64,000 nucleotides of DNA from Thermoplasmata archaeon (GTDB lineage: Archaea > Thermoplasmatota > Thermoplasmata > Thermoplasmatales > GCA-001856825), in assembly GCA_021792255.1 (NCBI GenBank), contig JAJYUZ010000001.1:416001-480000 (forward strand), given 5' to 3'. The translations under genes and the position numbers were made by a program. Under the pieces are notes generated by a model. The model worked only from the letters and a program-made list of their open reading frames with translations. It had not been told where the DNA came from and searched no databases. Below are positions 8,423-37,710 of this stretch, one piece after another (within the stretch, counting starts at the first letter, position 1; every line of letters starts with the position of its first letter).

Positions 8423-8504
8423 GGGAGCAAATTCATAGAGGATTCACAGTTTTTGTCTCCATTTCTGAACAAATCTAGTGAGTGACTTTAATTTAGAAAC
8501 TCGA

Positions 8505-9611: not shown

Positions 9612-9787
9612 GAATTTATCCTCATTTGCCGAAGAATATCCTACCTCATCAATATTCCCCTCCCTTTCCCAAAATAATGTTTTTTTACCCGGAGATATAG
9701 TATGGTAAATCGATTTGATACTTTTGGCAGTAGTAGAGTTGTAGAAGGTCTGCAAAGTATAATATCTGTCAAATCTATACTTGGTGT

Positions 9788-10996: not shown

Positions 10997-11022
10997 AGTC
11001 CCATAACGGTTGGCTTGAACTC

Positions 11023-11949: not shown

Positions 11950-11957
11950 ATTTCACC

Positions 11958-12872: not shown

Positions 12873-12875
12873 CCT

Positions 12876-12912
12876 CAGAATAAAAAATAAATTAAGAAAA
12901 AATAAGGAATTT
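12876..12912 (-). terminator. Oligo-T tract between malE and malF (partial terminator)
   Basis: A-rich run on the + strand gives T-tracts on the transcript about 30 nt after the malE stop. Confidence 0.45.
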
Positions 12913-12941
12913 ACTCTGGCAACATAGAGTGATTCACTTAT

Positions 12942-14351: not shown

Positions 14352-14439
14352 AGGATAATATATGAAACTCCTTACCTTAAATGTTTGCTTTGGGCTACTG
14401 GACCAAACTAATATAGCCCAACGGGGTTCATTACATTAC

Positions 14440-19741: not shown

Positions 19742-19953
19742 CTGGAATTAAGATTAATTCAATAAGTTTACGATTATGAGTACCTCTGCGTTATTTATTT
19801 GACCCCATTAGATGGAAGAGGACTGAAATGGTCCACTCATCCTCGAATTTTAGAATTGTTCAGATCTGACGTCGACATGAATTTGTTCTATGGCTCCGGA
19901 GGAATCAGGTTGATCTGACCGGTGGGCTAAGTATATTATTCAGGTCATCATAT

Positions 19954-21099
19954 TTGCTTATGAAGAAGATACCGGCGTTGCTAGTGACAGTTATATTGAT
20001 TGTGTTGACCCTTTCCATAACAAATTTTGTTGCCCCTACGTATTCTTCTTTAGGTCACAGCGACAATGGAAATTATCCGGCCGTCTCTCAGGCATCTTAC
20101 TATAATGGCACAAAGGCGGTGGACTATGGGCTTATGGTTCACACCGATTACATTCACAAAGCGTACTATCCAGCAGGAATTAATCAGTCGATTCTTCAGA
20201 AGAACTTGGATTACTTTAATTCAGAGGACTGTGCCCATTTTGTCTCGGAATCTCTAATCGCGGGAGGACTCACAGTGTTGGCAAGCAATCCACCGGGGGA
20301 CAATTTGACCAGCTACGATCAAGGATACTTTGGGAACGGGAGCTATGGAATTGTAGGAGTATACAGACTCGCTGATTGGCTTGCGGGATACGACCTGCCA
20401 ATCTTCCCTAACAATGCTACGGACGAGCAAACTATCGGATATTATCCAATCCCAGCGTCCTACGCTGGCAGCCCACAAGCGACCATGTTCTATGTTTTCA
20501 ACTATACGATGTTCCCATCATATTTCCTTTCACCGGGTGACGTGGTCATGGATGGAGGCGCGGGAGGCGGTCACGCAATGCTATACATCGGAAACGGACA
20601 GGTTGTCCAAACGGACCCCGCTGCGATATGGAATTATTCCCCTGCCGTGGACAATAATATCACTTTTTATGGTATATTGAGCTACTTTGGAAAGAATGTT
20701 TCTTCGCTGTACGTTCATATTCCTACTTTTGGTGAAAAGAGCGTAAGAATATCGGTACTGAACGACAATACGAACATAACAGGAAACCTCTCTGCAGTCA
20801 AGGCTGGAGAAAAACTGACGTTTATTGGCTCTTTCCCGAACGGAGTTGGTGAAGGGAATTACACCTATCAATGGATCGTTAACGGAAAATCAATGTCCAA
20901 TAGTCAGTTCTTTAACCTCACTCCATCATCGGGAACGTACAACATTGAAGTCGTATCCACCGGTTCAACTGGATCTGTAAATACGTCTATGTCATTTACG
21001 ATTGGTGGTAGTTCAACAACGACAACCATTCTGGTTGTTGGATTGGTAATTGTGGTAGCAGCTGTCTCTGCAATATTCCTCTTCAAAAGGAGAAAATGA
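19954..21099 (+). CDS. Secreted, C-terminally anchored Amidase_6/NlpC-P60-superfamily Cys hydrolase
   Basis: Signal peptide, AVDYG, DCAHFVSESLIAGG (Cys), PGDVV..GHAMLYIGNG (His), Ig/PKD-like segment, Ser/Thr linker, TM helix and KRRK. Confidence 0.7.
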   Translation: MLMKKIPALLVTVILIVLTLSITNFVAPTYSSLGHSDNGNYPAVSQASYYNGTKAVDYGLMVHTDYIHKAYYPAGINQSILQKNLDYFNSEDCAHFVSESLIAGGLTVLASNPPGDNLTSYDQGYFGNGSYGIVGVYRLADWLAGYDLPIFPNNATDEQTIGYYPIPASYAGSPQATMFYVFNYTMFPSYFLSPGDVVMDGGAGGGHAMLYIGNGQVVQTDPAAIWNYSPAVDNNITFYGILSYFGKNVSSLYVHIPTFGEKSVRISVLNDNTNITGNLSAVKAGEKLTFIGSFPNGVGEGNYTYQWIVNGKSMSNSQFFNLTPSSGTYNIEVVSTGSTGSVNTSMSFTIGGSSTTTTILVVGLVIVVAAVSAIFLFKRRK

Positions 21100-22353: not shown

Positions 22354-23196
22354 ATGCCTGAAAGGGAAAGATTGCCAGACACCGAAAAGTCAAATCCTAG
22401 AACAACGAACATCCCTGAACTTTCAACCTATGAAATCGTCAATCTGATTCATTCGGAGGACATCAGTGCATTTAGAGCCATTGACGGCACAACAAGACCC
22501 ATTTCTAAAGTCATAGATTCTTGTTTCAAAAAACTAATGATGGGTGGAAGGGTTGTGTATGTTGGATCTGGCACCAGTGGCAGAATCGGAGCACAAGACG
22601 CGATTGAAATGTGGCCAACGTATGGACTGGGTAAGGAGACATTTGATTATGTGATAGCAGGAGGTGAACGAGCCCTGACCAGGTCAATCGAAGGTGCAGA
22701 AGACTCAAGAGAAAGTGCGGTAGAAATGATCGAGAAGAAAAACATTACTGCTAACGACTGTGTAATAGGTATTACCGCATCTGGCCGAACGCCATTCGTG
22801 TTCGGAGCTTTGGAGAGCGCATCTAAAAAGGGAGCCTATACCGCTGCGATAGTGAATTCGAGAAATTCTCCATTGAAGGAAGTATCGAGAAATGTCATAT
22901 TCCTGAACACGGGAGAAGAAGTCATCCAGGGATCAACGAGAATGAAAGCTGCGACCGCTCAAAAGATGGTTCTGAACATAATCAGCACATCTCTTGCAAT
23001 CAAACTGGGACGAACTTACGGAAATCAAATGATTCATATGAAGGCGTCTTACAATGCAAAGCTAAGAAACAGGGCAGTCAGAATTCTAGCACAAAGGTTC
23101 GATATTTCTGTGATCGAAGCAGAGAAGAGACTCAAATCGCACAAGTACAACTTGAGCGAAACAGTAAAAGAGCTGGAACAGGTCAAGAGAGATTGA
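22354..23196 (+). CDS. murQ: N-acetylmuramic acid 6-phosphate etherase
   Basis: TEKSNP, GSGTSGRIGAQDAIE, EGAED, GITASGRTP, EVIQGSTRMKAATAQKMVLN. Confidence 0.95.
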   Translation: MPERERLPDTEKSNPRTTNIPELSTYEIVNLIHSEDISAFRAIDGTTRPISKVIDSCFKKLMMGGRVVYVGSGTSGRIGAQDAIEMWPTYGLGKETFDYVIAGGERALTRSIEGAEDSRESAVEMIEKKNITANDCVIGITASGRTPFVFGALESASKKGAYTAAIVNSRNSPLKEVSRNVIFLNTGEEVIQGSTRMKAATAQKMVLNIISTSLAIKLGRTYGNQMIHMKASYNAKLRNRAVRILAQRFDISVIEAEKRLKSHKYNLSETVKELEQVKRD

Positions 23197-24265
23197 GGAA
23201 TACCGTGTTGTGAAAGAGCCTCCTCAATCTTAAATTCTTAATATTCTCCCTCGTAGGATATACCCTGTTCGTCAGGAGAATACACGCCAACTTCATGTCA
23301 GAATTAATGCATATAGAGGTCCCCGTAAAACCAGTATGGCCGAAAGTACCGTATGGAGAAAATTCTCCCATGAAACCGTTGAAATCAAATGACTCGCTCT
23401 TTACTTCCGGCACTGGCACCTTCGTCATCCAACCCAGTCCAAACATTCCACCAAGATGTGCATTCTTATTCCTCGTTGCCAGTTCCCAAACACTCCTCTG
23501 TAGAAGCTCTCCATTCGCGAGAGAATGAATTATCCTGTTTATCTCTGAAGCGGTCGAAAATAGGCCCGCGTGTCCAGCGACCCCTCCGAGATAGTAAGAC
23601 TTTTCATCGTGCACTTTCCCCCACACCAAACCTCTTTCTTCTGTAACTTCGGTAGGAGCTATTCTTTCCTTGCTCTGATGGGGGTTAAATCCCGAGTTCT
23701 TGAGTCCGAGTTTTTCCGCTACTTCGTGTTTCCAAATCGTGTCAAGGGGCTTGTTGTGCAGTTCTTCCAGTACGAACCCGAGAAGTATGTAATTCAGGTC
23801 GCTGTAAAGCTCCTTCTTGTTCACAGTCGCCTTTTCTGCTTCTACTTCGATTCCAGAAAGATATGCCCTTCTGTCTCTTCCCGCGGTGTAGAGAGGTTTG
23901 TCTGGTATGAGCCCTGAAGTATGAGTCATCAGATTTTCTATGGTAAATTTCCCCAGATTCGGGAATTCTCCAAACAACCCGATATCAGCTATCGAATCCT
24001 TTAAGGATATCTTCCCTTTTGCGAGAAGCCTGCACATCAGCAGGGACGTCACCAGGGGTTTCGTTAGCGATGCTAGATCGAATATCGTGTCTTTGTTGTA
24101 GCTGAACCCCAGTTCGTCGATTTGTCCAAATGCGTTTTGATAAAGGACCTTTCCATCGAGAGAAACGAGGGCGCTCAAACCCCTTGTGGAGGAAGGTACA
24201 TTGTCGTGCAGCACCGAGTCGATTTCAGTGGAAAGCTTCTCTTCATCAATGGTACTCATATTCAA
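23183..24265 (-). CDS. Beta-lactamase-fold serine hydrolase, AmiE-like MurNAc-L-Ala amidase candidate
   Basis: FDLASLTK (SxxK), YSDLNY, GKVHDE, GVAGHAGLFS, GHTGFTG, LTNRVYP; no signal peptide. Confidence 0.8.
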   Translation of the reverse strand: MNMSTIDEEKLSTEIDSVLHDNVPSSTRGLSALVSLDGKVLYQNAFGQIDELGFSYNKDTIFDLASLTKPLVTSLLMCRLLAKGKISLKDSIADIGLFGEFPNLGKFTIENLMTHTSGLIPDKPLYTAGRDRRAYLSGIEVEAEKATVNKKELYSDLNYILLGFVLEELHNKPLDTIWKHEVAEKLGLKNSGFNPHQSKERIAPTEVTEERGLVWGKVHDEKSYYLGGVAGHAGLFSTASEINRIIHSLANGELLQRSVWELATRNKNAHLGGMFGLGWMTKVPVPEVKSESFDFNGFMGEFSPYGTFGHTGFTGTSICINSDMKLACILLTNRVYPTRENIKNLRLRRLFHNTVFLNLS

Positions 24266-24312
24266 CTATCTTCTATTGGTATTATAATCATTCTGATTTC
24301 AGCTCCTTCGAA

Positions 24313-25212
24313 TCACCTTGGTTTTAATAGATCCTTTTTCATTATTGTGAATCTTCTGGTCACCTTGAAACCAAATCTTGAATAGAGGTGAGTGGCCCGT
24401 TCGCTTGTCCACAAAAAGTAAGCGTGCTTCAGACCCAGCCCCTTCATGTTGTTCAACAATTGGGCTAGGATCAGTGCCCCTATCCCCTTTGATCTCTCTT
24501 TGTCCTCGACGCCGAATGGACCAAACCTTTCCCCCGGGGAGTACCACATGTCGCCCCTTCCAGCAGAAAACATTCCATAGCCAACTATTCTCCTTCCGAT
24601 TCTTGCAATCACAACTTGATCCTTGATTCCCATTTCAGCGACTCCCTTTGCACGATAGTAACAGTCGGAATTGAAGTTCTTTTCCACGAACGAAAGGAAC
24701 TTGGCCTCTTCACCTTGTCTGAGGGAGGAAACTTCAAACTCACTCGGCTCTATTTCTAAGTGCTGCATCTTTCCAATTTCTGCTTCCATGGAAATAGCCT
24801 CTTCGTGTGGGACGAAACCCAGCCTACCCAGTTCCCTTGCCAGCGAACGATACCTAACGGCGTCCACTCCTGGCATCAAGTAATTTGGTACCACATTAGA
24901 GTAGTATACCGTTTTCACTTTTCTATTGAGGAATTCTTCAAATTGCAAGTCCATTAATTTTCCAAAATTCTTCCTATCCTTGAATCCGCTCCCGAAGAAC
25001 CACCCCTTGTCGCTCTCGGAGGATTCGTAGTAGAATTTCTTCTTCCTAGTTACAGCGAGCGAGAATGCATCTTCCAGTGTAATCGGTAAAATGGGGTTCA
25101 AGTATTCGTCCTGAAGAAAGCTTCTTCGGATTTCCCGAGTCGTCACCGGATCGAGGCTATAAAATGAATTCCACTTTTTTTGAATTTCTTCTGCAGAATC
25201 ATTCTTACTCAT
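24313..25212 (-). CDS. GNAT N-acetyltransferase, possibly GlmA-like glucosaminide acetyltransferase
   Basis: FGPFGVEDKERSKGIG acetyl-CoA motif, LYSRFGF, NYLMPGV segment; 299 aa (tandem-GNAT size). Confidence 0.7.
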   Translation of the reverse strand: MSKNDSAEEIQKKWNSFYSLDPVTTREIRRSFLQDEYLNPILPITLEDAFSLAVTRKKKFYYESSESDKGWFFGSGFKDRKNFGKLMDLQFEEFLNRKVKTVYYSNVVPNYLMPGVDAVRYRSLARELGRLGFVPHEEAISMEAEIGKMQHLEIEPSEFEVSSLRQGEEAKFLSFVEKNFNSDCYYRAKGVAEMGIKDQVVIARIGRRIVGYGMFSAGRGDMWYSPGERFGPFGVEDKERSKGIGALILAQLLNNMKGLGLKHAYFLWTSERATHLYSRFGFKVTRRFTIMKKDLLKPR

Positions 25213-26185
25213 AGAGATAGCACGCCACTAGGTGGTCTTTTTCAACTTCTCTGAACTTAGGCCTCTCCTTCCTGCAGTTGTCCATTACGAATGGACACTT
25301 GTTCGCGTAACTGCATTCATTTTTCCCCTCGTTGACGTATTCAGATATCTGTCCCTTTGACTCGTCCAAATTCCACTTCTTCTTGGGATCGGGGACAGGT
25401 ATTGAATCTATCAGGGACTTAGTGTATGGATGCATGGGGTTGTTTATGATCCTGTCAGATTTGGCGACTTCCACCAGCTGACCGAGATGCATGACCGCAA
25501 TTCTATCCGAGACATATTGAGTGACTGCAATGTCGTGTGAGATGAACATCATTGATTTGCCAAACTTGCGTTTCAGATCCAGAAGAATATTTAGGATGTC
25601 GGCTCTCAGTGAAACATCAAGCATAGAAACTGGCTCATCGGCGATGATGAAGTCCGGATTGTTGATTACCGCCCTGGCTATACCTATTCTTTGCCTTTGA
25701 CCGCCACTCAGTTGGTTCGGGAATTTATTCAGGAACTGTTCCGCTGGTGTCAGGCCAACCATTTCTATGGTCTCGATCGCCTTATTCAGAACTTCTTCCT
25801 CTTTCAGTTCCTTGTGAAACACTCTGAGAGGCGTAACTATTGATTTATAGACTGAGATCACCGGGTTTAGAGAACTGTATGGGTCCTGGAAAATCATCTG
25901 TGTCTTTTCCCTGAAACCGAACAGCTGGCGCCCTGTGTATTTCATTATATTGTTACCATTGAAAATTATTTGTCCGGAATCGACGTCCATTAACTTCAAC
26001 AGCGCAAGTCCTAGAGTCGTCTTTCCACTGCCGCTCTCCCCTATGAGTCCGAAAATTTCGTGCTCTTTGATCTGCAGTTTGACCTGGTCCAGGGCTCGTG
26101 TTGTCCTGCTCTCTCTCCTTATGATCCCTCTCTTGTTGATGAAATCCTTCGTGAGTTCATTAGTTTCGATCGTACTACTTTCCAT
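25205..26185 (-). CDS. oppF: Oligopeptide ABC ATPase OppF
   Basis: GESGSGKT, LSGGQRQR, ADEPVSMLD, HPYT, C-terminal Cys cluster; start 26185 follows a GGTGA SD. Confidence 0.9.
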   Translation of the reverse strand: MESSTIETNELTKDFINKRGIIRRESRTTRALDQVKLQIKEHEIFGLIGESGSGKTTLGLALLKLMDVDSGQIIFNGNNIMKYTGRQLFGFREKTQMIFQDPYSSLNPVISVYKSIVTPLRVFHKELKEEEVLNKAIETIEMVGLTPAEQFLNKFPNQLSGGQRQRIGIARAVINNPDFIIADEPVSMLDVSLRADILNILLDLKRKFGKSMMFISHDIAVTQYVSDRIAVMHLGQLVEVAKSDRIINNPMHPYTKSLIDSIPVPDPKKKWNLDESKGQISEYVNEGKNECSYANKCPFVMDNCRKERPKFREVEKDHLVACYLYE

Positions 26186-26189
26186 CAGA

Positions 26190-27161
26190 TCACCTTCCAT
26201 AGAGATGACACGCGGCATAGTGTCCCTGTGAAACCATTTTCAATTCTGGCACCTCGTTCTTACACCTGTCGAATACGCTGTCGCACCTGTCCTTGAATGG
26301 GCATCCTTTAATTTCCTCTGAAAGATCTGGTGGAGTTCCTCTGATTCCCTTGACGGACTTCTCTTGTTCGAGAGATGGAATCGAGGCCAGTAGGGCCTTT
26401 GTATATGGATGCTGAGGACTGTCGAAGATTTCGTTAGATGGTCCACTTTCTGCAATCTTACCCGCGTACATCACATTGACTTTGTCTGCTATGTTAGCCA
26501 CCAGAGAAATATCGTGCGTAATGAAGATCAGTGAAATTGAAAGGTCATCCTTTAACTTGAGTAGCCTCGTCAGTATCTGTCTCTGAACCACTACGTCAAG
26601 GGCAGTCGTGGCCTCATCTGCTATTAGAATCTTAGGATCACAAGACAATGCCAGTGCTATGTTGACTCTTTGTTTCATCCCACCGCTCAACTCGTGAGGG
26701 AAAGATTTTCTAACGTTCTTGGTGAGCCCCGCAAGTTGAAGCATATAGTCGATCCTCTCGTCCACCTCATCTTCCTTGTACCCGTGTTCAACCATAACGT
26801 CCCCCATCTGATCCTCAATTCTCATTACTGGATTTAGTGAGTTCATAGCACTCTGGAATATCATAGAGACTTCTTTCCATCTGTACTTTCTGAGCGCGGA
26901 TGGTTTCATCTTTAAAACATCAGACTTCCCCTCACTCCCGTAGTACACAACTTTTCCACCCTTGATTTTCCCCGGATATTCGAGGAGTTTAAGGAAGGTC
27001 ATTGCCAGTGTGGATTTACCAGATCCGCTTTCACCCACTATCCCAATCACTTCTCCCTTGTTGACATCAAGACTGACGTGTGAAACGGCTTTTATTGTCC
27101 TATCAGGAAGTACGTAGTCTACGGAGAGATCGACCACTTCCATAATCGTTGAAGTCGTCAT
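26190..27161 (-). CDS. oppD: Oligopeptide ABC ATPase OppD
   Basis: GESGSGKS, PHELSGGMKQR, ADEATTALD, HPYT, CPFKDRC. Confidence 0.9.
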   Translation of the reverse strand: MTTSTIMEVVDLSVDYVLPDRTIKAVSHVSLDVNKGEVIGIVGESGSGKSTLAMTFLKLLEYPGKIKGGKVVYYGSEGKSDVLKMKPSALRKYRWKEVSMIFQSAMNSLNPVMRIEDQMGDVMVEHGYKEDEVDERIDYMLQLAGLTKNVRKSFPHELSGGMKQRVNIALALSCDPKILIADEATTALDVVVQRQILTRLLKLKDDLSISLIFITHDISLVANIADKVNVMYAGKIAESGPSNEIFDSPQHPYTKALLASIPSLEQEKSVKGIRGTPPDLSEEIKGCPFKDRCDSVFDRCKNEVPELKMVSQGHYAACHLYGR

Positions 27162-28063
27162 TTCCCATTCCCCTTTGAAGCTTTTGAAATTTCGTATATC
27201 GCATTCGATAGGAAATTAGCGCCAATTCCCAATATCACGATCCCCAATCCCGGGGGAAGTAGCCACCACCATGCTCTGTAAACGATTCCATCTTCGGCCT
27301 GGAAGAAATATAGCATGGTCCCCCAGTTCACAGACCTTAGGTCTCCAAGACCAAAAAAGGCAAGACCAGCTTGAGCTACTACTCCACCGACTGCCAAGAA
27401 TATCGCATTGATGAAGATTATAGGAAGGAGGTTCGGAAGGATATCTCTGATAATAATCTGCATTCCATTCAGCCCCGAGAGCTTTGAAGCCATGATGTAT
27501 GGTCTTTCTTTGAGAGACAGTGTTTGCGATCTTACTACCCTAGCAAGAAAAGGCCAACTCAAGATCGAGAGGACAAAAATCGTAGTTTCCAGAGTCGGTG
27601 GGAGAAATGCGGAAAGTATGACGAGCAAAGGAAATCCCGGGATCACCAGCAGAACGTCTACTGCCCTCATCAGTACGTCGTCGACCTGTCTTCCAAAGTA
27701 TCCTGCCACCACTCCAACTAGAACTCCTATGAAAGCAGAAAGGAGCGCGATGCTTAATCCCACGACCAGAGATGTTCCAGTACCGATGAGGAACCAAGAG
27801 AATATGTCAGCCCCTTCGTAATCGGTACCTAGCAGGTGTTGATAACTCGGTGGTTGGAAGGCTAGAGAGTTAGTGTTATAGGGCGAATACGGAGCAAAAA
27901 AGTATCCGAATATCGCAAGAAGACCCAATGCCGTCAGAATTATGAGACCCGCCCGTCCTTTTTTGTGCGACCATACTCCCTTCATGAAGCTCCTGAACCT
28001 GTTCATCGGGCTATTGCTTGCCAACGCCCTTTGTATTTCTTCCGCTCTTGCTTCGGACATCAT
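27158..28063 (-). CDS. oppC: Oligopeptide ABC permease OppC
   Basis: HLLGTD, RSQTLSLKERPY, WWWLLPPG. Confidence 0.9.
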   Translation of the reverse strand: MMSEARAEEIQRALASNSPMNRFRSFMKGVWSHKKGRAGLIILTALGLLAIFGYFFAPYSPYNTNSLAFQPPSYQHLLGTDYEGADIFSWFLIGTGTSLVVGLSIALLSAFIGVLVGVVAGYFGRQVDDVLMRAVDVLLVIPGFPLLVILSAFLPPTLETTIFVLSILSWPFLARVVRSQTLSLKERPYIMASKLSGLNGMQIIIRDILPNLLPIIFINAIFLAVGGVVAQAGLAFFGLGDLRSVNWGTMLYFFQAEDGIVYRAWWWLLPPGLGIVILGIGANFLSNAIYEISKASKGNGK

Positions 28064-29058
28064 TTTAAAACCACCCTTGGATCCAAATACGCATACAGCA
28101 AATCGACTATAAAATTGGCAATAATGGTAGTAAATGTAATCATGACGAAAATTCCCTCGATCAGAGGATAATCAGAGACCGTCACGGCATTGTATAGAAC
28201 ATATCCAATCCCGGGGTAAGAGAATACGACTTCGACCAGAAACGCACCTCCAACGATTGATGCAAACGCTAGTGCGACGCTGGTCGCAACAGGTAACCTG
28301 GCGTTCTTGTTCACATACTGTTTCCTTATCGTATTGTCACTAAGTCCTTTGGCCTTGGCAAGGAGAACATAGTCCTCGTCTAGCACAGTCACTACCGTAT
28401 TTCTCATCAGAAGTGCAAATCCCGTGAAAGACGTGATAACAAGAGTTATAATCGGGAGCGCAGAATGTCTGAGTACCGATAGGACGAATGGAAGATTAGT
28501 TCCAGGGGTTACCGTTATTCCATATCCCTGAGCCACAGGGAATATATGAAAACCATTGATCACAATCAGAACTGCAAAAACGAGTTGGAATATTAGAGCC
28601 AGCCAGAAGTATGGTACTGAAGTGAGAGATATAGAAAAGCCCTGCAAGAATGAATCGCTTGCGCCTCTCTTCCATCCTGAATAGGAGCCAATGAATATTC
28701 CTAACACGATTGAAATCATCAAAGAGGTACCTAGGAGAAACAGGGTCCAAGGGAGATGTGTCATAATCAATTGCGAGACGGGCTCTGGATAATAATAGAA
28801 CGAAGGTCCAAAGTTTCCATGAATAAGGGACCCCCAAAATCCGACATATTGTTGCCACAGGGTACCTCCAAGATGGAGTTCGCTCTCGATTATCTTGAGC
28901 TGGTATGGATTTATGCGCCCTGCATATTTTGTAAGCAAAACATCCATAACTGGATTTCCCGGTACAGCCCTAGGAAGAAGAAAGACAAGGGTCAAAGCAA
29001 TGAAAAGAGTGATCGCCATATATATGGTTCTGCGTATAAGATACCGAAGCGTTATCAT
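28060..29058 (-). CDS. oppB: Oligopeptide ABC permease OppB
   Basis: PGNP, EDYVLLAKAKGL, VEVVFSYPGIG, DYPLIEG, LDPRV. Confidence 0.9.
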   Translation of the reverse strand: MITLRYLIRRTIYMAITLFIALTLVFLLPRAVPGNPVMDVLLTKYAGRINPYQLKIIESELHLGGTLWQQYVGFWGSLIHGNFGPSFYYYPEPVSQLIMTHLPWTLFLLGTSLMISIVLGIFIGSYSGWKRGASDSFLQGFSISLTSVPYFWLALIFQLVFAVLIVINGFHIFPVAQGYGITVTPGTNLPFVLSVLRHSALPIITLVITSFTGFALLMRNTVVTVLDEDYVLLAKAKGLSDNTIRKQYVNKNARLPVATSVALAFASIVGGAFLVEVVFSYPGIGYVLYNAVTVSDYPLIEGIFVMITFTTIIANFIVDLLYAYLDPRVVLK

Positions 29059-29337
29059 TTCAATGTTATTAGCTCATGTGATATAGTCCTTTTTGAACCT
29101 GAACTTACCCTCCCCTCACTTCAATCTCATAGTCGTATACTTTGGTGACGAACCTAAAAATTAAGATCGGAGGTGCTCGTCTATCTAAGATAATTCTAAT
29201 TGCGAGTTTTCATAATTTAAATTTTAATTGAAATGCGTTCTTAACGACCCACTTTTTTAACTGTTTTAAGTGGGGTTTAAGTAGTTTATCTCTTAAAAGA
29301 CCAGAAATCTATAAATTCAGGATGTATTATAAAGTCT

Positions 29338-31182
29338 ATGACGTCTGAAAATTCTGGAAACAAAGGAACTAAGGTACGGAGTAAAATCTTGACAATAGCA
29401 ATTGTTACCTTCGTTCTGACTATGTCTTTCGCAGTTCTTTTTGCGAATGGAAACGCAGCAACGCAACCCAGCGGAACGTATATCTGGGGTACTCCGGTAA
29501 GTACTCCGGTCACGGACCTTAACCCGCTTGTGGCAACCAATCTTGCAGGCGAAGCGACAGCAATAATGTATCCAACAAGTCTTCTGTATCCTCTGTCAGA
29601 TGGCAGTTTGATACCCTGGCTAGCAGAAAACTACACGATAAGTTCAAACGGCTTGGTCTATACATTTAATTTAGTCCACAACGCAACGTGGATGAATGGA
29701 ACGAGTGTCGCTGGTCCAATAACTGCTCAGGATGTTGCATTTACATTCAATGTCCTTAAAGCAAATTCGACGCTCGATTCGTATGGAGTAGATCCCTATC
29801 TCAAGTCTGTCACCGCTGTGAACAACTATACGGTCCAATTCGTGCTTAACTCATCTTCAATAATGATGTTGACGTATCTTGCAACACAAACGGTAATACC
29901 CGCCGCGTGGGGATCCCTAGTGAATGGCAATCTTTCGGCGGTAGGAGGCTACAACAATCTTGACACACCTCACCAACTGCAGGCAGGGCCTTTTATCCTA
30001 CAGTCTGCAAGTGAAACCTCATTAAACTTCGTTGCAAATACTCATTTCTGGATGGGTACACCTCACGTACTGAATTTGATCGTTGAGCCGTTTAAGTCTA
30101 CCTCCGCAATGACTCTCTCATTCCAAAGTGGAGCTATTGACGCAGAGTATCCGGCCATCAGCGACTATGCTGCACTAAGCACAACCTCTAATGTAGTCAA
30201 CAATATTTACAAGGAACCCTGGTCATACTACCTGTGGGACAACACACAAGTAGCACCATACAACAACACGAGTTTCAGACAGGGGCTTGCTTATGCAATT
30301 AACAAGACTCAAATCATGCAGAAGGCAGAAGATGGCATAGGCGGAAGCGGATCGTATGGAGGAGAACCTTGGACGAATACTTCTTGGTGGGCAGCAGGTT
30401 TGCCCGAGTATAAGTACAACACCACACTCGCTACGCAGTCATTCGAAGCCGCTGGTCTTACTATGAAGGGAGGTTTCTGGACATATCCAAACGGGACTGC
30501 AGTGCAGATCAAGATCGTGGATCCACCAGTTTCTGATTGGACTACGGCTGCCTCTTTCATTGCCAATGACTTGGGCCAGGCAGGATTCCAGGTAACGGAG
30601 TCTATAGTGCCTTTCAGTACATGGGCAACCGACATGTTCCACAGCAAAGTGTCCCAAGCAACTAATGTCATCAGCTACTTTGGTGCAACGCCATCATACT
30701 CCAACGCTTGGTATGTGTTACAGGACCTTTATTCCTACAACAGCTTCTGGGATGGCTATATAACTCACTGGAACAATGCAACGGTCAACAACATATTCAA
30801 TCAGACAGCGACCTTGGTCAATAACAACACATTACTGCTCCAAAAACTTGCAGTAGCACAGAGAATAATTGCACAGCAGGTACCAATGGTTCTGATAGGA
30901 GATGTTGGCAATTACTATGCGTATAACGATCAGAAGATAACCGGATTTGTTGCAAACGAGCCACCAGATGGAACCTACAATCTGATAAGAATATCAGTAC
31001 CATCCTCGGTAACGACTACCCCAACTTCGACGATACCTTCCTACGTGTATGCACTGATAGTAGTGATTGTTCTGATAGTTGTCATAGTGCCTATAGTCTA
31101 CATAATGTCCAAGAGAGGAAAGGCGAAGAAAACGGAAGAAGCCCCCTCGACACAACCGCAGGAACCTGAAAAGAAAACATAG
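29338..31182 (+). CDS. oppA: Family 5 (OppA/DppA) substrate-binding protein, archaeal type with C-terminal anchor
   Basis: Signal peptide, PWLAENY, ITAQDVAFTF, GPF, FRQGLAYAINK, Thr-rich linker and TM; many NxS/T sequons; divergent from oppBCDF. Confidence 0.88.
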   Translation: MTSENSGNKGTKVRSKILTIAIVTFVLTMSFAVLFANGNAATQPSGTYIWGTPVSTPVTDLNPLVATNLAGEATAIMYPTSLLYPLSDGSLIPWLAENYTISSNGLVYTFNLVHNATWMNGTSVAGPITAQDVAFTFNVLKANSTLDSYGVDPYLKSVTAVNNYTVQFVLNSSSIMMLTYLATQTVIPAAWGSLVNGNLSAVGGYNNLDTPHQLQAGPFILQSASETSLNFVANTHFWMGTPHVLNLIVEPFKSTSAMTLSFQSGAIDAEYPAISDYAALSTTSNVVNNIYKEPWSYYLWDNTQVAPYNNTSFRQGLAYAINKTQIMQKAEDGIGGSGSYGGEPWTNTSWWAAGLPEYKYNTTLATQSFEAAGLTMKGGFWTYPNGTAVQIKIVDPPVSDWTTAASFIANDLGQAGFQVTESIVPFSTWATDMFHSKVSQATNVISYFGATPSYSNAWYVLQDLYSYNSFWDGYITHWNNATVNNIFNQTATLVNNNTLLLQKLAVAQRIIAQQVPMVLIGDVGNYYAYNDQKITGFVANEPPDGTYNLIRISVPSSVTTTPTSTIPSYVYALIVVIVLIVVIVPIVYIMSKRGKAKKTEEAPSTQPQEPEKKT

Positions 31183-31189
31183 TATTTGA

Positions 31190-31230
31190 CCATCTTTTTT
31201 TTATTTTTCTTTATTTTCTTTCAATTTTAA
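31190..31230 (+). terminator. Oligo-T archaeal terminator after oppA
   Basis: TCTTTTTTTTATTTTTCTTTATTTTCTTT directly after the stop codon. Confidence 0.6.
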
Positions 31231-31304
31231 ATCACAGCTAACCTCTTTTGAATCGCTAGGATTTGTGACCACATTTTAATTATACGAACCTGAATTCTCT
31301 CCAG

Positions 31305-32519
31305 TCACCGGTAGATTAGGAATTCTTCTCTATTCTCGATAAACAACGACTCATCAGATTTCAGTTTCTCTTCAAGCGCTTCCATTTCACCGTTTTGGAG
31401 GTAGTTTCTTATCAGAGAAGTGCCAGCAACTCGGTCAAAATAGTCGTTGTGAAACTGGAATTCTTCTGGATAGTCGTGAATTAATAAGTCCAGTAGCCTG
31501 GCACTGAATATGAATGGCCTAAATTTGTTCCTGTCTCTTATGTGAACCTCAATGCCCTGACATTTCATACCCTGGAACTTTGAGAACGTCGGTGTGAACC
31601 TGATCTCGCTTACTGCCACACCGGGCATATTAAGATCGTTGATTTCGTGGGCGAATTTGTGACCATCTATCCACGGTGCACCGATTATCTCAAACGGTTT
31701 TGTAGTTCCCCTTCCTTCAGAGACGTTTGTTCCCTCGAACATTACCTGTCCGGGATAAACGGTGGCCGTGTCAATTGAGGGCATGTTGGGAGACGGAAGT
31801 GTCCATGGCCATCCCGTTTCATCAAACCACATTTTTCTATTCCAAGAAGCCATCCTTGAGATTCTTAAATCGACCCTGTTCTCGAACAAATTTGCATTGG
31901 TCATCGAGGCAAGCTCCCCTAACGTCATTCCGTGCCTCATCGTAATGGCATAGGCACCAATATAAGATCTGTACTTGGGATAATCAAGAATTGGCCCTTC
32001 CACGCTCGCTCCGTTTATCGGATTTGGTCGGTCCAAGACTGTCAGCTCGATCCCCCTATTGGCACAAGTTTCCATTGCATTGACCATCGAAGCTACGTGC
32101 GTATAAACCCTTGTTCCCACGTCTTGAATATCGAAAATCACCGCATCCAGCTCCGATGCTATCTCTTCTGGAATATACTTTCCAGTATCTTTTGTATCGA
32201 ACGATCTCATCTTGCCGTCCGTGCTCGGGATTCTCTGCTCTTTTTTACCTTGTCTGTATATGCTATAGACCATGACGCCTAGTTCTTTGTCAAAATAGGA
32301 AGGTACAGACTCGCCTGCCTGTTCGTTGATATGAAATCCGTGCTCGGGTGAGAACAGAGCAGAGATTTTAATTCCGAATTTATTTAGTAGGTAGTCTGCT
32401 GTATATCCCAGATCAAAAGAGATTCCAGTCCTATTAGTTATTAGACCAATTCTCTTTTTTTGCAATTGCTGAGCGAATTCTTTCCCAACCGTTTCTAGGC
32501 CAACTTTGACGCGCACCAC
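31305..32519 (-). CDS. namZ: Exo-beta-N-acetylmuramidase NamZ (DUF1343/YbbC, GH171)
   Basis: GLITNRTG, LFSPEHG, FDIQDVGTRVYT, LDRPNP, RHGMTLGEL, PSPNMP, EGTNVSEGRGTTKPFE. Confidence 0.92.
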   Translation of the reverse strand: MVRVKVGLETVGKEFAQQLQKKRIGLITNRTGISFDLGYTADYLLNKFGIKISALFSPEHGFHINEQAGESVPSYFDKELGVMVYSIYRQGKKEQRIPSTDGKMRSFDTKDTGKYIPEEIASELDAVIFDIQDVGTRVYTHVASMVNAMETCANRGIELTVLDRPNPINGASVEGPILDYPKYRSYIGAYAITMRHGMTLGELASMTNANLFENRVDLRISRMASWNRKMWFDETGWPWTLPSPNMPSIDTATVYPGQVMFEGTNVSEGRGTTKPFEIIGAPWIDGHKFAHEINDLNMPGVAVSEIRFTPTFSKFQGMKCQGIEVHIRDRNKFRPFIFSARLLDLLIHDYPEEFQFHNDYFDRVAGTSLIRNYLQNGEMEALEEKLKSDESLFIENREEFLIYR

Positions 32520-32637
32520 CTCGTAGATTTCTCCAACTCTTAAGTGTTGCTAAATTATATACTGCTCCAGTAATCTGTCAGCGACCAGTCTAATAGGCTC
32601 AATTTCAGAATGCCGATAATAATTTCATTCTCTGGTT

Positions 32638-33690
32638 ATGCAAAGAATTTTAGACCCAGTGGAATTGAGTTGGGTGAATATTGTATCAGTAGACGGCGGG
32701 GCAACGAAAACTATAGCCGTTGTCTACAACGAAGAAAAAAAATTGCTGGGAGCAGGAGTTTCTGGTCCATCGAACTACAGAAACGTCGGTGTTCGGATGT
32801 TTAAGATCAACCTTTTGAGCGCAATCGAAAAGGCAGTAGCTTCATCTGGAGCATCCGATATAGGGGAGTACACTTTTGCGCTAGCTGGAATGAAGGATTC
32901 CAAGAAGTCCTCAGATAAGATCATGGGGATTCTTAACGCGATCATTCCTAGCTCTAATATTTCGTTCTTCAATGATGGGGAGGCGGGTTTCTTCTCAAGG
33001 TTCCCTGAAGGGAGAGGAATTGTAGTGGCTCCAGGTACCGGAATGGTATCATACGGACGCATTGGAGAAAAGATCGAAAGATCGTCGGGTTGGGGTTGGT
33101 TTCTGGACGACGAAGGAAGTGCCTTTTCGATCGGTAAGCGGGCACTCCAGGAGGCAGTAAAATTAATGGACAAGAGGGACGAAAGAGTGTCGATTCTGCC
33201 TGATTTTGTGAGACAATATTACGGACTATCTGCGGATAGAGACATAATCAACATAATACACAGAAGAGTGTTCGATGTCAGGGGGATAGCTCTACTGTCT
33301 CGATACGTTTCAAAATTTGCAGTGGAGGGGGATCCCGTCTCTTTGGGAATAATGAAAGAAGCAGCGGAGGAGACATCACGAGCTGCAGTTTCACTCTACA
33401 AGAGACTGGGAGAGCCCAAAGATATCGCGATTAGTGGGTATGGCGGGGTTCTGAGAGCAGGCGAGTGGTACTGGGACACGATCAAGAAGAACATCGAAAA
33501 CAAAATAGGAAAATCTCAGTTCAGACCTCCAATTTCTGGATACGAAGCGGTTCTAGGTTCCATAGTACTGAAATACAAAATCCTTGGAGTGAACGTCGAC
33601 GAGGCTATGGTTACTGACTTTAGGAAGCAATTATCGGTACTGATTGATAGAATGAGCGTTGAGGACAAGAAAGAGTTTCTTCTGCTTTGA
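32638..33690 (+). CDS. BadF/BadG-family amino sugar kinase (MurK/NagK-like)
   Basis: VDGGATKT, GPSN, ND, PGTG, GWGWFLDDEGSA; start may be GTG 32674. Confidence 0.85.
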   Translation: MQRILDPVELSWVNIVSVDGGATKTIAVVYNEEKKLLGAGVSGPSNYRNVGVRMFKINLLSAIEKAVASSGASDIGEYTFALAGMKDSKKSSDKIMGILNAIIPSSNISFFNDGEAGFFSRFPEGRGIVVAPGTGMVSYGRIGEKIERSSGWGWFLDDEGSAFSIGKRALQEAVKLMDKRDERVSILPDFVRQYYGLSADRDIINIIHRRVFDVRGIALLSRYVSKFAVEGDPVSLGIMKEAAEETSRAAVSLYKRLGEPKDIAISGYGGVLRAGEWYWDTIKKNIENKIGKSQFRPPISGYEAVLGSIVLKYKILGVNVDEAMVTDFRKQLSVLIDRMSVEDKKEFLLL

Positions 33691-33723
33691 ATGATGACAA
33701 TTATTCTGAACTCGGACAGAAAT

Positions 33724-35148
33724 CTAGAGGTTTGCTCCCTCTATTTCCCCTGGATCATAAAATCCGAGTATCGAGTATAAAGAAGCCAGAACACTTTCGA
33801 GCTTTTCGCTCATCGCACTGATGTAACCAACCTGTTCGTTAAGAAGACTGGAATCTACTGGTATTCCTGTCGAAACAAAACAGCATTTATTGCTATTCGA
33901 AAGTTCGTTTATCATCTTCCATGTTTCACTCAAATGAAGATTCTTTCCTATGAAGATCACATTTGCGTTTTCTAACTTCAGTTCGTCGTTGAGATAGCGT
34001 ATCTCGTTCTCTATCTTCAGATCGTTAAGCTTCTTGCCTAATTGTTGATACATAGTAAAGGGCCAGGAGCTTTCGTCCCCCCTATTCCGGAGGGGCACGA
34101 TAAAGACGCGTTTCTCCAGATCAAGTTTCTTCTTCCTGATCCACTTTATTGCATTAACTGATATCCAATTCATAACTTCAGGTGGAGAGGATGTGTGACC
34201 GGACGGATGGATGTTCATTCTCAGGAGCCTTTCCTCTTTTTGTTTCGTGTCCACCTCGGCTCTCTTTTCAAGATGTTCAAATATTTCTAGTGCCAGATCA
34301 GGGTCTGCGCATTCGAGAACGTCTGCGCCTCCGGAAAAAGACGATTTGGTGAACTCTGCAACTGAAAAATTTGCAGATATTGCTTTCATATCCAGAGAAT
34401 CCGTAATTATCAGATTTTGGAATCCCAGATCCTTCCTGAGATACGACATTATTTTATTAGACATCGATGCTGGGAAATCTGGGTCTAGGGCTTCGTATTT
34501 GATGTGGGACATCATTATACTTTTCACATCTTTCTTTATTGCACTCTTGAATGGAGTGATGCTGTTCATTATTGAATCTGCCCCTCTTCCGTCAACTGGC
34601 AGTTTTAGATGTGAATCCTCACGCACGTAACCGTGTCCTGGAAAATGTTTCGCAGTAGCAGCAACTCCAGCAGCCTGTATTCCTTCTATATAGCCCTCGC
34701 CCAACCTAGAAACTACTTCTGGGTTTGCCCCGAACGACCTCTCCATCACTATTGGGTTGTCTGAATTGGAAAATGTGTCGAGGACAGGGGCTAGGTTCCA
34801 ATATATTCCGACCTCCCTAAGCTGATGTCCGGTGATGTTTCCAGCGTACCTCGCAAAGACCTGGCTTCCAAGGACCCCGAGAGCATAATTGCTTGGTAGG
34901 TAATCTAGGTCCCTTATTCTGACAACATTCCCTCCTTCTTGATCTATGGCGATTATCGGTCTTTGAATTTTTAACTCCTTGTCGTAGAAAGAGAAGATAG
35001 TTCTAATCAAATTTCTCAAAGAGTCAATACCGTTGAAATCCCTTCCCAGGAGCACAATTGATCCTGGCTTTATCGTATTCAGAACCTTCTTCGTTTTCTC
35101 CATGTTGGTTCCGTCGATGCCGGGCTGAAGGAATAGTCCTGATCTCAT
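33724..35148 (-). CDS. nagZ: GH3 beta-N-acetylglucosaminidase
   Basis: IDQEGG, NLAPVLD, RSFG, NagZ signature KHFPGHGxxxxDSH, ITDSLDM; no signal peptide. Confidence 0.93.
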   Translation of the reverse strand: MRSGLFLQPGIDGTNMEKTKKVLNTIKPGSIVLLGRDFNGIDSLRNLIRTIFSFYDKELKIQRPIIAIDQEGGNVVRIRDLDYLPSNYALGVLGSQVFARYAGNITGHQLREVGIYWNLAPVLDTFSNSDNPIVMERSFGANPEVVSRLGEGYIEGIQAAGVAATAKHFPGHGYVREDSHLKLPVDGRGADSIMNSITPFKSAIKKDVKSIMMSHIKYEALDPDFPASMSNKIMSYLRKDLGFQNLIITDSLDMKAISANFSVAEFTKSSFSGGADVLECADPDLALEIFEHLEKRAEVDTKQKEERLLRMNIHPSGHTSSPPEVMNWISVNAIKWIRKKKLDLEKRVFIVPLRNRGDESSWPFTMYQQLGKKLNDLKIENEIRYLNDELKLENANVIFIGKNLHLSETWKMINELSNSNKCCFVSTGIPVDSSLLNEQVGYISAMSEKLESVLASLYSILGFYDPGEIEGANL

Positions 35149-35287
35149 CGCTAATTATCCATTTCCTGTATATAATTTGATGGAGAGCTTTGAGTATCTT
35201 TGGTTAATGCCTTTCCCAGTGTCCTATCGATAGTTCACTTCCTTCCCTGAAAGACTGGGTTTAATTATTTGTAAGGCATGCTTTGCC

Positions 35288-36352
35288 ATGATATCTTCAG
35301 TCGAGTTCAAGAGAATCGAAATTGCAATGAAGAAGCCTTTTGTTATAGCAATCGGAAGCACTTCAGTCTATGAAGGATTCATCGTGAAGGTGAAGACTGA
35401 CGACGGATACGAGGGAATAGGAGAGGCTGTGCCGACGCCACATATCATGGGCGATACCATGGGTTCGGTCGAGAACGAGCTTGGAATATTCCAAAAGAAT
35501 ATAGTTGGAATGGAGACCAGCCCGGAAAGGATCAATGAGAAGATGTTCTCTCTCGCAAGAAATTCAAAGGCGAGCAGAGCGGCAGTAGATATGGCCATTT
35601 GGGACATTATAGGAAAAAAAGCGAAACTTCCAGTTCATTCCATCCTTGGAAATTACAGGAGCGAATTTGAGACAAGTTACACGGTCGATCTAGTAGAGCC
35701 AGAAGTTGCAGGAAGGGAAGCCGCAGAACTGCTGAGGGATGGAGTCGTTGTTTTCAAGATTAAGCTCGGATCTGGATTGGAAAAGGACTATGCTAGGGTA
35801 GAAAGGGTTAGGAAAATAGTGGGTGATGATAAGGAGGTATATGTGGACTTCAATCAGTCATACTCTGCAAAGAAAGCAATAGCACTATCAGAAAAGATTT
35901 CAAAATTCAACATAGAGTTTCTTGAACAACCCGTGCCCGCAAACGATGTGAGAGCGCTGAGGTTTGTCAGGGAGCACACGTCTATCCCCGTGATGGCAGA
36001 TGAGGCTGTCATGTCACCTCAGGATGCTGCCACAATCATACAAAACGAAGCAGCCGATATGATAAACCTGAAGCTCATGAAGTCAGGGGGCATCACAGAT
36101 GGGTTGACCATCATCAAGACTTCACAATCGTTCAGAATTCCTGTGATGATTGGTTGCATGGTGGAGACCAGACTGGCAAATACTGCGGGCTTGCACCTGG
36201 CTCTTTCTCAACCAGCCGTCAAATATACCGATTTAGATGGGTTCTCTAGCTTAAAGGAAGATATAGTCAACGGCGGAATCTCCTTCAAGAATGGAAAGAA
36301 TTCGTTGGGAGATGGACCGGGATTGGGAGTCAATCTCAAAAAAGGTTATTGA
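35288..36352 (+). CDS. ykfB: L-Ala-D/L-Glu dipeptide epimerase (YkfB/YcjG-like, enolase superfamily)
   Basis: PFVIA, GIGEA, FKIKLG, DFNQ, EQP, ADE, NLKLMKSGG, GCMVE, DLD (epimerase DxD). Confidence 0.88.
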   Translation: MISSVEFKRIEIAMKKPFVIAIGSTSVYEGFIVKVKTDDGYEGIGEAVPTPHIMGDTMGSVENELGIFQKNIVGMETSPERINEKMFSLARNSKASRAAVDMAIWDIIGKKAKLPVHSILGNYRSEFETSYTVDLVEPEVAGREAAELLRDGVVVFKIKLGSGLEKDYARVERVRKIVGDDKEVYVDFNQSYSAKKAIALSEKISKFNIEFLEQPVPANDVRALRFVREHTSIPVMADEAVMSPQDAATIIQNEAADMINLKLMKSGGITDGLTIIKTSQSFRIPVMIGCMVETRLANTAGLHLALSQPAVKYTDLDGFSSLKEDIVNGGISFKNGKNSLGDGPGLGVNLKKGY

Positions 36353-36523
36353 AGGAATTTTTCTGGATTGATATCCATTATGATACGTTCCGAGTTCACT
36401 CTAGACTGTAGAAAGACCTTGGATCATTCGTTCAAATCGCCCCATAGCTTTATCGCTAAGTCGGATGCTGCGAAGAAAGATTTGATGAAAAGAAATATTA
36501 AAGCTCCTTGGATTTGACTGAGA

Positions 36524-37615: not shown

Positions 37616-37710
37616 GCACCGAAAGAAACATTGCTTTGGAAGAGCACTATGCTTCCTCCTAGCGGGACTTGAACGTTCAAAAGTTGTCTCCTTTAAAAAA
37701 TCGACATCCT

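Follow-up and report, generated by a model that had tools for sequence, protein, structure and literature searches.

A candidate surface-tethered Cys/His hydrolase within a murein-catabolism gene cluster in a Thermoplasmata archaeon

A 64,000-nt stretch of a Thermoplasmata archaeon genome (GenBank assembly GCA_021792255.1, contig JAJYUZ010000001.1, positions 416,001 to 480,000 of the forward strand; hereafter, the window) encodes a protein with a candidate Cys/His active site, which we refer to as the hydrolase, directly upstream of nagA and murQ and on the same strand, as a sequence-only reading of the window had noted. Here, we present evidence that this protein probably hydrolyses stem peptides or cross-links outside the cell and thereby supplies an Opp-type importer and a cytoplasmic muropeptide pathway. 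The assignment draws on the architecture of the protein, its fold class, its conserved residues, the synteny of its gene, and the co-occurrence of that gene with murQ. The chemistry and the superfamily are already known; what is new is the family, its predicted archaeal glycoprotein tether, and its constant position at the entry to an archaeal pathway that consumes murein.

The window protein is a 381-codon frame in which the motifs DCAHFVS and GGGHAM supply C93 and H207, respectively. In an alignment of 21 family members, D92, C93, H95, D196, D200, H207, Q219, T220, and D221 are invariant. All 87 homologues have DC[AS]H, and 84 have G.GH...QTD. C93 is the only cysteine of the window protein, and the same cysteine is the sole one in 11 of 20 aligned relatives; a lone conserved cysteine is consistent with a catalytic thiol in a protein located outside the cell. 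In the full-length AlphaFold model (pLDDT 76.6), C93 heads helix 93–103, and H207 lies just before strand 208–213, which is the papain-like arrangement. The two residues are 114 positions apart, and between the Cys helix and the His strand lies a long conserved insert (approximately residues 104–175, part of it modelled at low confidence) that includes NPPGDNLT and GSYGIVGVYRLA. Q219 stands 12 residues past H207 and aligns with the last residue of a matched stretch of RipA, at the position that we take to be that of the third catalytic residue of RipA.

A structure search independent of Foldseek and covering 48,161 PDB representatives was consistent with this arrangement. All listed rows that fall mainly on the catalytic part (starting at residues 45–53 and ending at residues 256–301) are peptidoglycan hydrolases of the NlpC/P60, CHAP, or Tae type. 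They include Lys2972 (Z 10.2), LysIME-EF1 (Z 9.2), Tae3 (Z 9.1, 114 of 118 residues aligned), SagA (Z 9.0), PlyGRCS (Z 8.9), and Tae4 (Z 8.5, 152 of 161 residues aligned), with LytE, CwlO, RipA-like, and YkfC-like proteins as further matches. When the full model was run through Foldseek against the PDB, matches to the PKD/Ig-like domain prevailed, and nothing was returned on the catalytic part. The sequence-only reading had staked its assignment on a papain-like fold; the model and the PDB search returned one, at Z 8–10. The modelled papain-like core (residues 49–260), taken with the conserved Cys/His pair of the alignment, places the domain within the NlpC/P60-CHAP superfamily.

Profile comparisons narrow the assignment. 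We aligned the domain profile, from which the L023 copy (4 in-frame stops) was left out, with a reference profile of eight PF12671 (Amidase_6) domains taken from Actinomycetota genomes. The hhalign comparison gave 94.8 % probability and an E-value of 5.4e-8; the 127 aligned columns bring both the DC..FVS..L..GG and the GD...H motif into register. In a protein-language-model atlas, 28 of the 30 neighbours of the protein are Amidase_6 clusters (score 0.92). When the search threshold was relaxed to E <= 10, 17 of 21 relatives had an Amidase_6 match over the Cys region (best E 4.7e-4) and 16 of 21 an NLPC_P60 match over the His region (best E 0.012), all below curated cut-offs; across the whole 1.59-Mb genome, PF12671 matches only at the hydrolase gene. 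A profile search of the PDB aligned PGD..DGG.G.GH..Y.GNG..VQ with the His stretch of RipA and RipB (E 0.03–0.05), and PDB sequence searches with the family and Amidase_6 profiles gave only matches at E 0.02–1 or nothing relevant. PMC10318531 classes Amidase_6 with NlpC/P60, CHAP, and Tae effectors among the papain-like enzymes and lists it among families possibly working with a Cys-His pair alone. Judged from profiles and model together, the catalytic domain is a remote Amidase_6 relative within the NlpC/P60-CHAP superfamily and not a Pfam member by cut-off. The Amidase_6/NlpC-P60-like Cys/His assignment of the sequence-only reading is thus borne out by fold, hhalign, and language-model neighbours.

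The catalytic domain is carried on what appears to be an archaeal surface protein, with an N-terminal export signal, a C-terminal anchor, and an excess of sequons by hydropathy and counting. A simple hydropathy scan places hydrophobic stretches within residues 1–31 and 349–380, and the AlphaFold model has helices at 6–21 and 358–380. Residues 1–27 are predicted to form a signal peptide or an N-terminal anchor; at the other end, GGSSTTTT is followed by a hydrophobic helix and then by KRRK. The sequence contains 14 N-x-S/T sequons, compared with 4.8 ± 1.9 expected, a number that not one of 5000 shuffles attained; each of seven sequons is retained by 15 or more of the 21 relatives. Among the 87 homologues, the N-terminal hydrophobic segment is present in 81, the C-terminal one in 84, and the basic tail in 86, and the median sequon density is 3.25 per 100 residues. 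We scanned 23 window proteins, the whole cluster included, and found hydrophobic segments at both termini only in the hydrolase, OppA, and one unrelated sugar-binding protein. Sequon density is 2.6–3.7 per 100 residues in the hydrolase and the two solute-binding proteins and 0–1.4 in the other twenty. By this hydropathy and sequon criterion, the earlier claim that the hydrolase is the only predicted exported enzyme of the cluster holds, and its proposed surface-protein scaffold (signal segment, sequons, Ig/PKD-like segment, linker, transmembrane helix, and KRRK) is recovered by hydropathy, model, and sequon counts. These features suggest an exported and N-glycosylated archaeal surface protein.

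Between the catalytic domain and the anchor, the model contains a confident beta-sandwich (approximately residues 263–351; pLDDT about 89–96). It matches PKD, Ig, and FN3 domains at Z 8–9, one of them the PKD domain of 1l0q, an S-layer protein from an archaeon, and the data do not separate these three classes. PF00801 (PKD) scores 14.7 bits against a cut-off of 23.5, and PKD_3 (PF16820) matches 13 of 21 relatives (best E 1e-4), below its curated cut-off. In this model, the domain is possibly a stalk and perhaps a substrate-binding module.

The genomic setting of the gene points to murein. A locus scan with one genome per species gave 24 loci, of which 23 archaeal loci were kept. Locus L024 (Paraconexibacter) was dropped from the counts as a chance PGDV.DGGA match inside a protein with a methyltransferase-like motif; its genome was used only as a starting point in Actinomycetota for collecting Amidase_6 domains. 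Each of the 23 loci, several of which are short contigs, has at least one of NagA, MurQ, NagZ, an NlpC/P60 peptidase, an S13 peptidase, and LysA within the fetched DNA; MurQ is within reach in 11, and an Opp system is usually near. The immediate neighbour varies: the window and the loci closest to it have NagA-MurQ next to the gene, eight loci have S13-LysA (downstream), and others have Opp. Because the neighbour changes across at least three gene orders, the association with murein genes survives rearrangement. In a sample of 401 genomes of the class, with murQ called at E <= 1e-30, 17 are murQ-positive, and the hydrolase gene is present full-length in 8 genomes and as a contig-end fragment in 1. 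All 9 carriers are murQ-positive, and 0 of the 384 murQ-negative genomes carry the gene. The sequence-only reading had linked the gene to nagA-murQ and had named homologues independent of murQ/nagZ clusters as evidence to the contrary. We looked for such homologues; window order, loci, and co-occurrence all uphold the link, with each locus beside murein genes and each carrier holding murQ.

The murein in question would be foreign, since a search of the genome (93.6 % complete) for transpeptidase and transglycosylase families came back empty. Recycling of the cell's own wall was rejected on this basis. The genome has a single Mur_ligase_M match (G000:C3:116678-117343, in a 442-aa frame outside the window and far from the cluster); this family also matches in three archaeal control genomes, and the match is probably not a murein ligase. 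The GH25, GH73, SLT, Amidase_2, Amidase_3, and S66 families were likewise not found in the genome, and no recognisable candidate other than the hydrolase is left for an extracellular attack on murein.

Bacterial muropeptide recycling proceeds through removal of GlcNAc and MurNAc, peptide release, phosphorylation, an etherase step that yields D-lactate, and deacetylation. The peptide is processed by D-Ala trimming, cleavage of the gamma-D-Glu-mDAP bond, epimerisation of L-Ala-D-Glu, and decarboxylation of mDAP. Going by family names, the genes surrounding the hydrolase (positions 16358-38979; Table 1) would cover most of these steps and would form a near-complete murein breakdown set. Downstream of murQ, hydrophobic segments occur in OppA and the permeases only. 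For the NagZ, AmiE-like, and NamZ homologues, even the ORFs extended to their maximum length begin without a hydrophobic segment. The best NCBIfam match of the beta-lactamase-family protein is PBP4B.

Table 1. Features of the hydrolase gene and its surroundings, in window positions.
Feature	Position	Strand	Basis or remark
Whole ORF, 381 aa including TTG start	19954..21099 (stop codon included)	+	ORF reading
TATA-box-like element TATATTAT	19932..19939 (~25 nt upstream of ATG 19960)	+	Read from sequence
N-terminal basic (KK) and hydrophobic segment, residues 1-27	19954..20034	+	Hydropathy; model helix 6-21; 81/87 homologues likewise
Catalytic domain, residues 48-262, papain-like NlpC/P60-CHAP fold (predicted)	20095..20739	+	Alignment, model, fold search, hhalign
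Codon of C93, proposed nucleophile; sole Cys, N-terminus of helix 93-103	20230..20232	+	Conservation, model
Codon of H207, proposed general base; precedes strand 208-213	20572..20574	+	Invariant; aligned to RipA/RipB and Amidase_6 His
Codon of Q219, candidate third polar residue, in invariant Q-T-D-P	20608..20610	+	Putative role
PKD/Ig-like beta-sandwich, residues 263-351	20740..21006	+	Model, structure matches
Ser/Thr-rich linker, C-terminal transmembrane helix, and KRRK tail, residues 352-381	21007..21096	+	Hydropathy, model
nagA	21183-22319	+	NCBIfam TIGR00221, 282.7 bits vs cut-off 225.65
murQ	22354-23196	+	NCBIfam NF003915, 311.2 bits vs cut-off 168
NlpC/P60+SH3 peptidase, YkfC-like, cytoplasmic	16358-17044	-	Pfam; without hydrophobic N-terminus
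Fe-S/CCG subunit	17101-18351	-	Pfam; without hydrophobic N-terminus
FAD-linked oxidase	18341-19741	-	Pfam; without hydrophobic N-terminus
Remaining cluster: beta-lactamase-family (PBP4B/AmiE-like), GNAT, OppFDCB, OppA (29338-31182), NamZ, BadF-type kinase, NagZ (GH3)	23183..38979		Pfam, NCBIfam
Remaining cluster, continued: MR/MLE dipeptide epimerase-like, S13 DD-peptidase, LysA	23183..38979		Pfam, NCBIfam

Several neighbouring genes show further features. The FAD-linked oxidase and Fe-S/CCG subunit are, by their families, likely a D-lactate dehydrogenase pair and could oxidise the D-lactate released by MurQ; in a tblastn search of the 23 loci, the pair occurs elsewhere only in the nearest relative (L022). 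The GNAT gene of the cluster (24313-25212, minus strand) encodes a protein of 299 aa in which a GNAT domain follows an N-terminal half of uncharacterised nature, and it recurs in 7 of 23 loci (L003, weakly, and L007, L009, L010, L013, L016, and L022). The S13 D-Ala-D-Ala carboxypeptidase homologue (36524-37615, plus strand) has no N-terminal hydrophobic segment and is apparently cytoplasmic, which is unusual for S13. Adjoining lysA, a predicted cytoplasmic protein (39122-40396, minus strand) gives a weak Phospholipase_B match (PF04916, E 2.4e-10); a homologue also lies near the L002 cluster, and the protein might be an Ntn-type amidase of the murein pathway. On the other side of the cluster, a separate alpha-glucan utilisation block (6068-16314) contains GH31, a TrmB regulator, a MalK-type ATPase, two permeases, a sugar-binding protein with a C-terminal anchor and predicted glycosylation, and an alpha-amylase-family enzyme.

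We propose the following model for the role of the hydrolase. A type-I-like N-glycosylated protein would leave the cytoplasm but stay anchored to the cell surface through its C-terminal helix, and the PKD/Ig-like domain would serve as stalk or binding module. C93 and H207, the latter probably oriented by Q219, would hydrolyse an amide bond in the peptide part of murein outside the cell, acting on murein fragments or on wall material that touches the cell. OppA of the same cluster would then capture the soluble products, and OppBCDF would bring them into the cell. There, NagZ, NamZ, and the AmiE-like amidase would take the imported muropeptides apart. The sugars would pass to a MurK-like kinase, MurQ, and NagA, and lactate to the D-lactate dehydrogenase pair. 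The peptide would be processed by the S13 peptidase, the YkfC-like NlpC/P60 peptidase, the dipeptide epimerase, and LysA.

The bond that is cut can be narrowed from the cellular location of the other enzymes. Because the AmiE-like amidase, NagZ, and NamZ are predicted to be cytoplasmic, the muropeptides would be imported still linked to glycan, and this favours an endopeptidase that makes small soluble fragments. We infer that a cross-link or stem endopeptidase has slightly better than an even chance, that a MurNAc-L-Ala amidase has a clearly smaller share, and that the remainder falls to other bonds.

A number of observations weigh against the proposed role. The hydrolase has no Pfam or NCBIfam match at E <= 0.01. 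Amidase_6 (PF12671) reaches 14.4 bits (14.7 in a six-frame genome search) against a cut-off of 23.2, and NLPC_P60 (PF00877) reaches 15.0 bits (E 0.025, residues 192-221 only) against a cut-off of 23. A Pfam scan of the protein recognised no cell-wall-binding domain. Z 8–10 is a range that the search tool itself terms "middling"; the weight of the fold evidence would lie in one family filling the rows and in the near-full coverage of small enzymes. Loops 114-117 and 155-169 are modelled at low confidence, and the catalytic domain folded alone from a 23-sequence alignment gave a poor model (pLDDT 58). PDB searches detected no solved Amidase_6 structure by sequence, and the Bacillus subtilis members yhbB and yjcM are listed as uncharacterised, so that bond specificity is not transferable; we found no Amidase_6 member with a defined bond specificity. 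Neither the 23 loci nor the co-occurrence counts represent independent events, since the genomes behind them are related. The membrane tether limits the reach of the enzyme. The absence of GH25, GH73, and SLT from the genome leaves no visible means of cutting glycan strands outside the cell, which weakens whole sacculi as a substrate. A free thiol and a Cys-His pair are also chemically demanding in very acidic, iron-rich mine water. Finally, 8 of the 17 murQ-positive genomes lack the hydrolase gene, and no substitute exported hydrolase was evident in seven stretches from five murQ-positive, hydrolase-negative genomes, where the exported proteins were solute-binding proteins, one protein without a Pfam match, and one PNGase-A-like protein. 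The murein pathway can therefore run without the hydrolase, which is an accessory front end and not a core step.

Some proteins encoded in the hydrolase-negative genomes are of note in their own right. The murQ clusters of such genomes contain very large exported OppA-like proteins (L027:16250-19900 and L030:16805-19900; >1000 aa and running beyond the end of the stretch), one of which has a Big_1 domain. The PNGase-A-domain protein (PF12222, E 4.8e-17; L029:90-1883) is exported and sequon-rich and lies near the murQ cluster of genome G007.

Among the closest folds of the catalytic domain are those of lytic enzymes, namely phage endolysins and the type VI secretion effectors Tae3 and Tae4, and the hydrolase might accordingly be read as a contact-dependent antibacterial weapon that breaches the walls of living, chiefly Gram-positive, neighbours with exposed murein and kills them or causes leakage, with the cluster using the debris. 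This scenario, which would extend rather than replace a nutritional role, has precedent: bacteria-killing archaeal peptidoglycan hydrolases have been shown experimentally for Halogranum salarium, and the Discussion of the same paper raises bacteria themselves as a resource (PMC12352652). The patchy spread of the gene (8 full-length carriers in 401 genomes) also resembles that of the weaponised hydrolases described there. We nevertheless consider a weapon quite improbable. The membrane-helix anchor in 84 of 87 homologues restricts action to directly touching cells, the Pfam scan finds no cell-wall-binding module, and the cluster contains neither a partner muramidase nor a delivery system. Across the 23 loci, the gene always accompanies catabolic and uptake genes, not immunity-like or secretion genes. 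The nutritional front-end role is better supported than the killing role, given the membrane tether, the lack of a glycan-cutting exoenzyme, and the murQ-positive genomes without the gene. The inference of the sequence-only reading that the enzyme cuts intact sacculi and might lyse living bacteria gains no support from these observations. A related reading, to which we assign a low likelihood, is that these proteins are a family of their own, glycosylated and tethered murein hydrolases that act as the "teeth" of an import-first pathway and open living Gram-positive walls on contact. If so, these archaea would be contact-dependent bacteriolytic feeders and not mere debris scavengers.

The two other alternatives concern the substrate and the activity itself. 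A surface Cys-peptidase or amidase might act on something other than peptidoglycan, such as gamma-glutamyl polymers, D-amino-acid peptides, environmental oligopeptides destined for Opp, or the cell's own surface glycoproteins during maturation. The superfamily includes members that do not act on murein, PDB profile searches gave weak PLAAT/LRAT-type acyltransferase matches (E 0.5–1), curated cut-offs of peptidoglycan-hydrolase models are unmet, and an Opp-type peptide importer adjoins the gene in most loci. Opp systems and surface glycoproteins are, however, widespread in the class Thermoplasmata, and a non-murein substrate is hard to square with a gene that co-occurs exclusively with murQ and is found in none of the 384 murQ-negative genomes sampled. 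All listed structure matches of the catalytic part are peptidoglycan hydrolases, and synteny with NagZ, MurQ, NagA, the S13 peptidase, LysA, and the YkfC-like peptidase is specific to murein breakdown; on balance, a substrate other than murein is unlikely. The papain-like domain could instead be a noncatalytic receptor that binds murein fragments for OppA or for sensing, in the manner of the inactive RipD. An NCBIfam model for that inactive peptidoglycan-binding NlpC/P60 protein exists (it is listed for a neighbouring gene), and the hydrolase gene stands beside a binding-protein-dependent importer. The near-universal conservation of DC[AS]H and G.GH...QTD and the sole cysteine in the window protein and over half of its relatives are the pattern of a working active site, and they make a receptor very improbable.

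The gene itself can be defined more closely. The true start is probably the ATG at 19960, which would give a protein of 379 aa. We favour this codon because M3 is nearly invariant in the 21-sequence family alignment, because a near-identical database protein is 379 aa long and the protein atlas sequence begins at residue 3, and because of the position of the TATATTAT box. The box suggests, by its spacing, that the gene may have its own promoter and an mRNA with a short leader or none. In a comparison of ten intergenic regions from the cluster, no k-mer that could mark a shared operator exceeded shuffled controls (best, 4 regions; shuffled maxima, 3–4). The protein matches 87 clusters at 90 % identity (E 6e-63 to 3e-245), so its ORF is not a chance frame. 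Three studies have metagenomes that contain DNA of the locus, with mine drainage, mine tailings, and sediment as the sampled material, and no RNA run carrying the locus is listed among public runs.

All named proteins among the 87 clusters are annotated as "hypothetical." Where a source is named, it is Thermoplasmata or Thermoplasmataceae, apart from one partial Methanomassiliicoccales record and a single "Bathyarchaeia" bin, and the family was found only in Thermoplasmata-type metagenome genomes. A search of 1.84 billion representatives returned one full-length representative and fragments of the same family, with other matches on the PKD part only. A profile search of 5.8 billion proteins found the same family only (28 matches) and no bacterial bridge. 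The "Candidatus Bathyarchaeia" bin (DRTY-6 bin 76; L001 and L023) carries two hydrolase copies. The 4 in-frame stops of one of them (L023:626-1249) are consistent with frameshifts, indicating a pseudogene or an assembly error, and the Bathyarchaeia label may reflect mis-binned Thermoplasmata contigs. Two copies are also present in "Candidatus Sysuiplasma superficiale" (L007 and L020) and in genome G080.

Few pools of bacterial necromass are as large as that of peptidoglycan, and its consumption by archaea is largely unexplored. We found no prior description of murein catabolism in Thermoplasmata or archaea in the literature searched, which largely excludes subscription journals; the only related work found was that of Strock et al. 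(PLoS Biol 2025, PMC12352652). That paper leaves open whether archaeal murein hydrolases serve conflict or feeding. The present locus is a concrete and testable case for feeding, in that one outward-facing hydrolase is tied to an importer and to a near-complete predicted cytoplasmic pathway for sugars and D-amino-acid peptides. Because the family is invisible to Pfam, Pfam-based surveys would miss it. As an enzyme tethered to a cell in acidic mine water, the hydrolase may also interest enzymologists as a predicted acid-stable murein hydrolase.

Comparison with known hydrolases sets the family apart. Like Amidase_6 proteins ("putative amidase domain" in Pfam) of Bacillota and Actinomycetota, it has, in order, an N-terminal Y-N..A..YA helix, D-C-x-x-F-V-S-x-x-L-x-x-G-G, and G-D...D...H. 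It differs from them in its much longer Cys-His insert, its archaeal host, its sub-cut-off Pfam score, and its predicted tethering by a PKD domain and membrane helix instead of bacterial wall-binding repeats. The NlpC/P60 DL-endopeptidases (RipA/RipB, LytE, CwlO, and SagA) and the CHAP endolysins (LysIME-EF1, LysGH15, and PlyGRCS) share the modelled fold over residues 49-257 at Z 8–9. As in these enzymes, the cysteine stands at a helix N-terminus, and the His stretch aligns with that of RipA and RipB as PGD..(x)..GH..Y.GNG..V(Q/E). Identity with these enzymes is 5-18 %, and the hydrolase has an extra conserved lobe (residues 104-175) and no SH3, LysM, or coiled-coil modules. Tae3 and Tae4 give the best coverage among small single-domain hydrolases, and Tae3 is grouped with Amidase_6 in PMC10318531; PDB profile searches gave no match to either at the sequence level. 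These effectors are injected bacterial toxins with immunity partners, in contrast to a tethered archaeal surface protein encoded in a catabolic cluster.

The enzymes of Strock et al. are likewise archaeal and aimed at bacterial murein, and that paper notes Thermoplasmatota as rich in peptidoglycan hydrolase genes (PMC12352652). Its survey required a Pfam catalytic domain together with a Pfam cell-wall-binding domain. Since the hydrolase has neither at threshold (0 families at E <= 0.01), it would fall outside the survey under that definition. The enzymes tested there are secreted M23 peptidases, whereas the hydrolase is predicted to be membrane-tethered and belongs to a catabolic cluster.

The closest parallel for the cluster is the murQ-murR-murP-amiE-nagZ-namZ system of B. 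subtilis, with which it shares MurQ, NagZ, NamZ, and an AmiE-like beta-lactamase-family protein. The Bacillus NagZ, AmiE, and NamZ are secreted enzymes that break down murein extracellularly (PMC8054146). AmiE belongs to PF00144, the Pfam family shared with the beta-lactamase-family protein of the cluster. In the archaeon, by contrast, NagZ, the AmiE-like protein, and NamZ are without export signals, and the outward enzyme is a putative Cys/His hydrolase that is absent from the Bacillus operon. Uptake and phosphorylation would depend on an Opp-type ABC system and a BadF-type kinase, not on a phosphotransferase system. By analogy, the archaeal cluster resembles the Bacillus rescue system turned inside out, with import coming first and most of the digestion taking place inside the cell.

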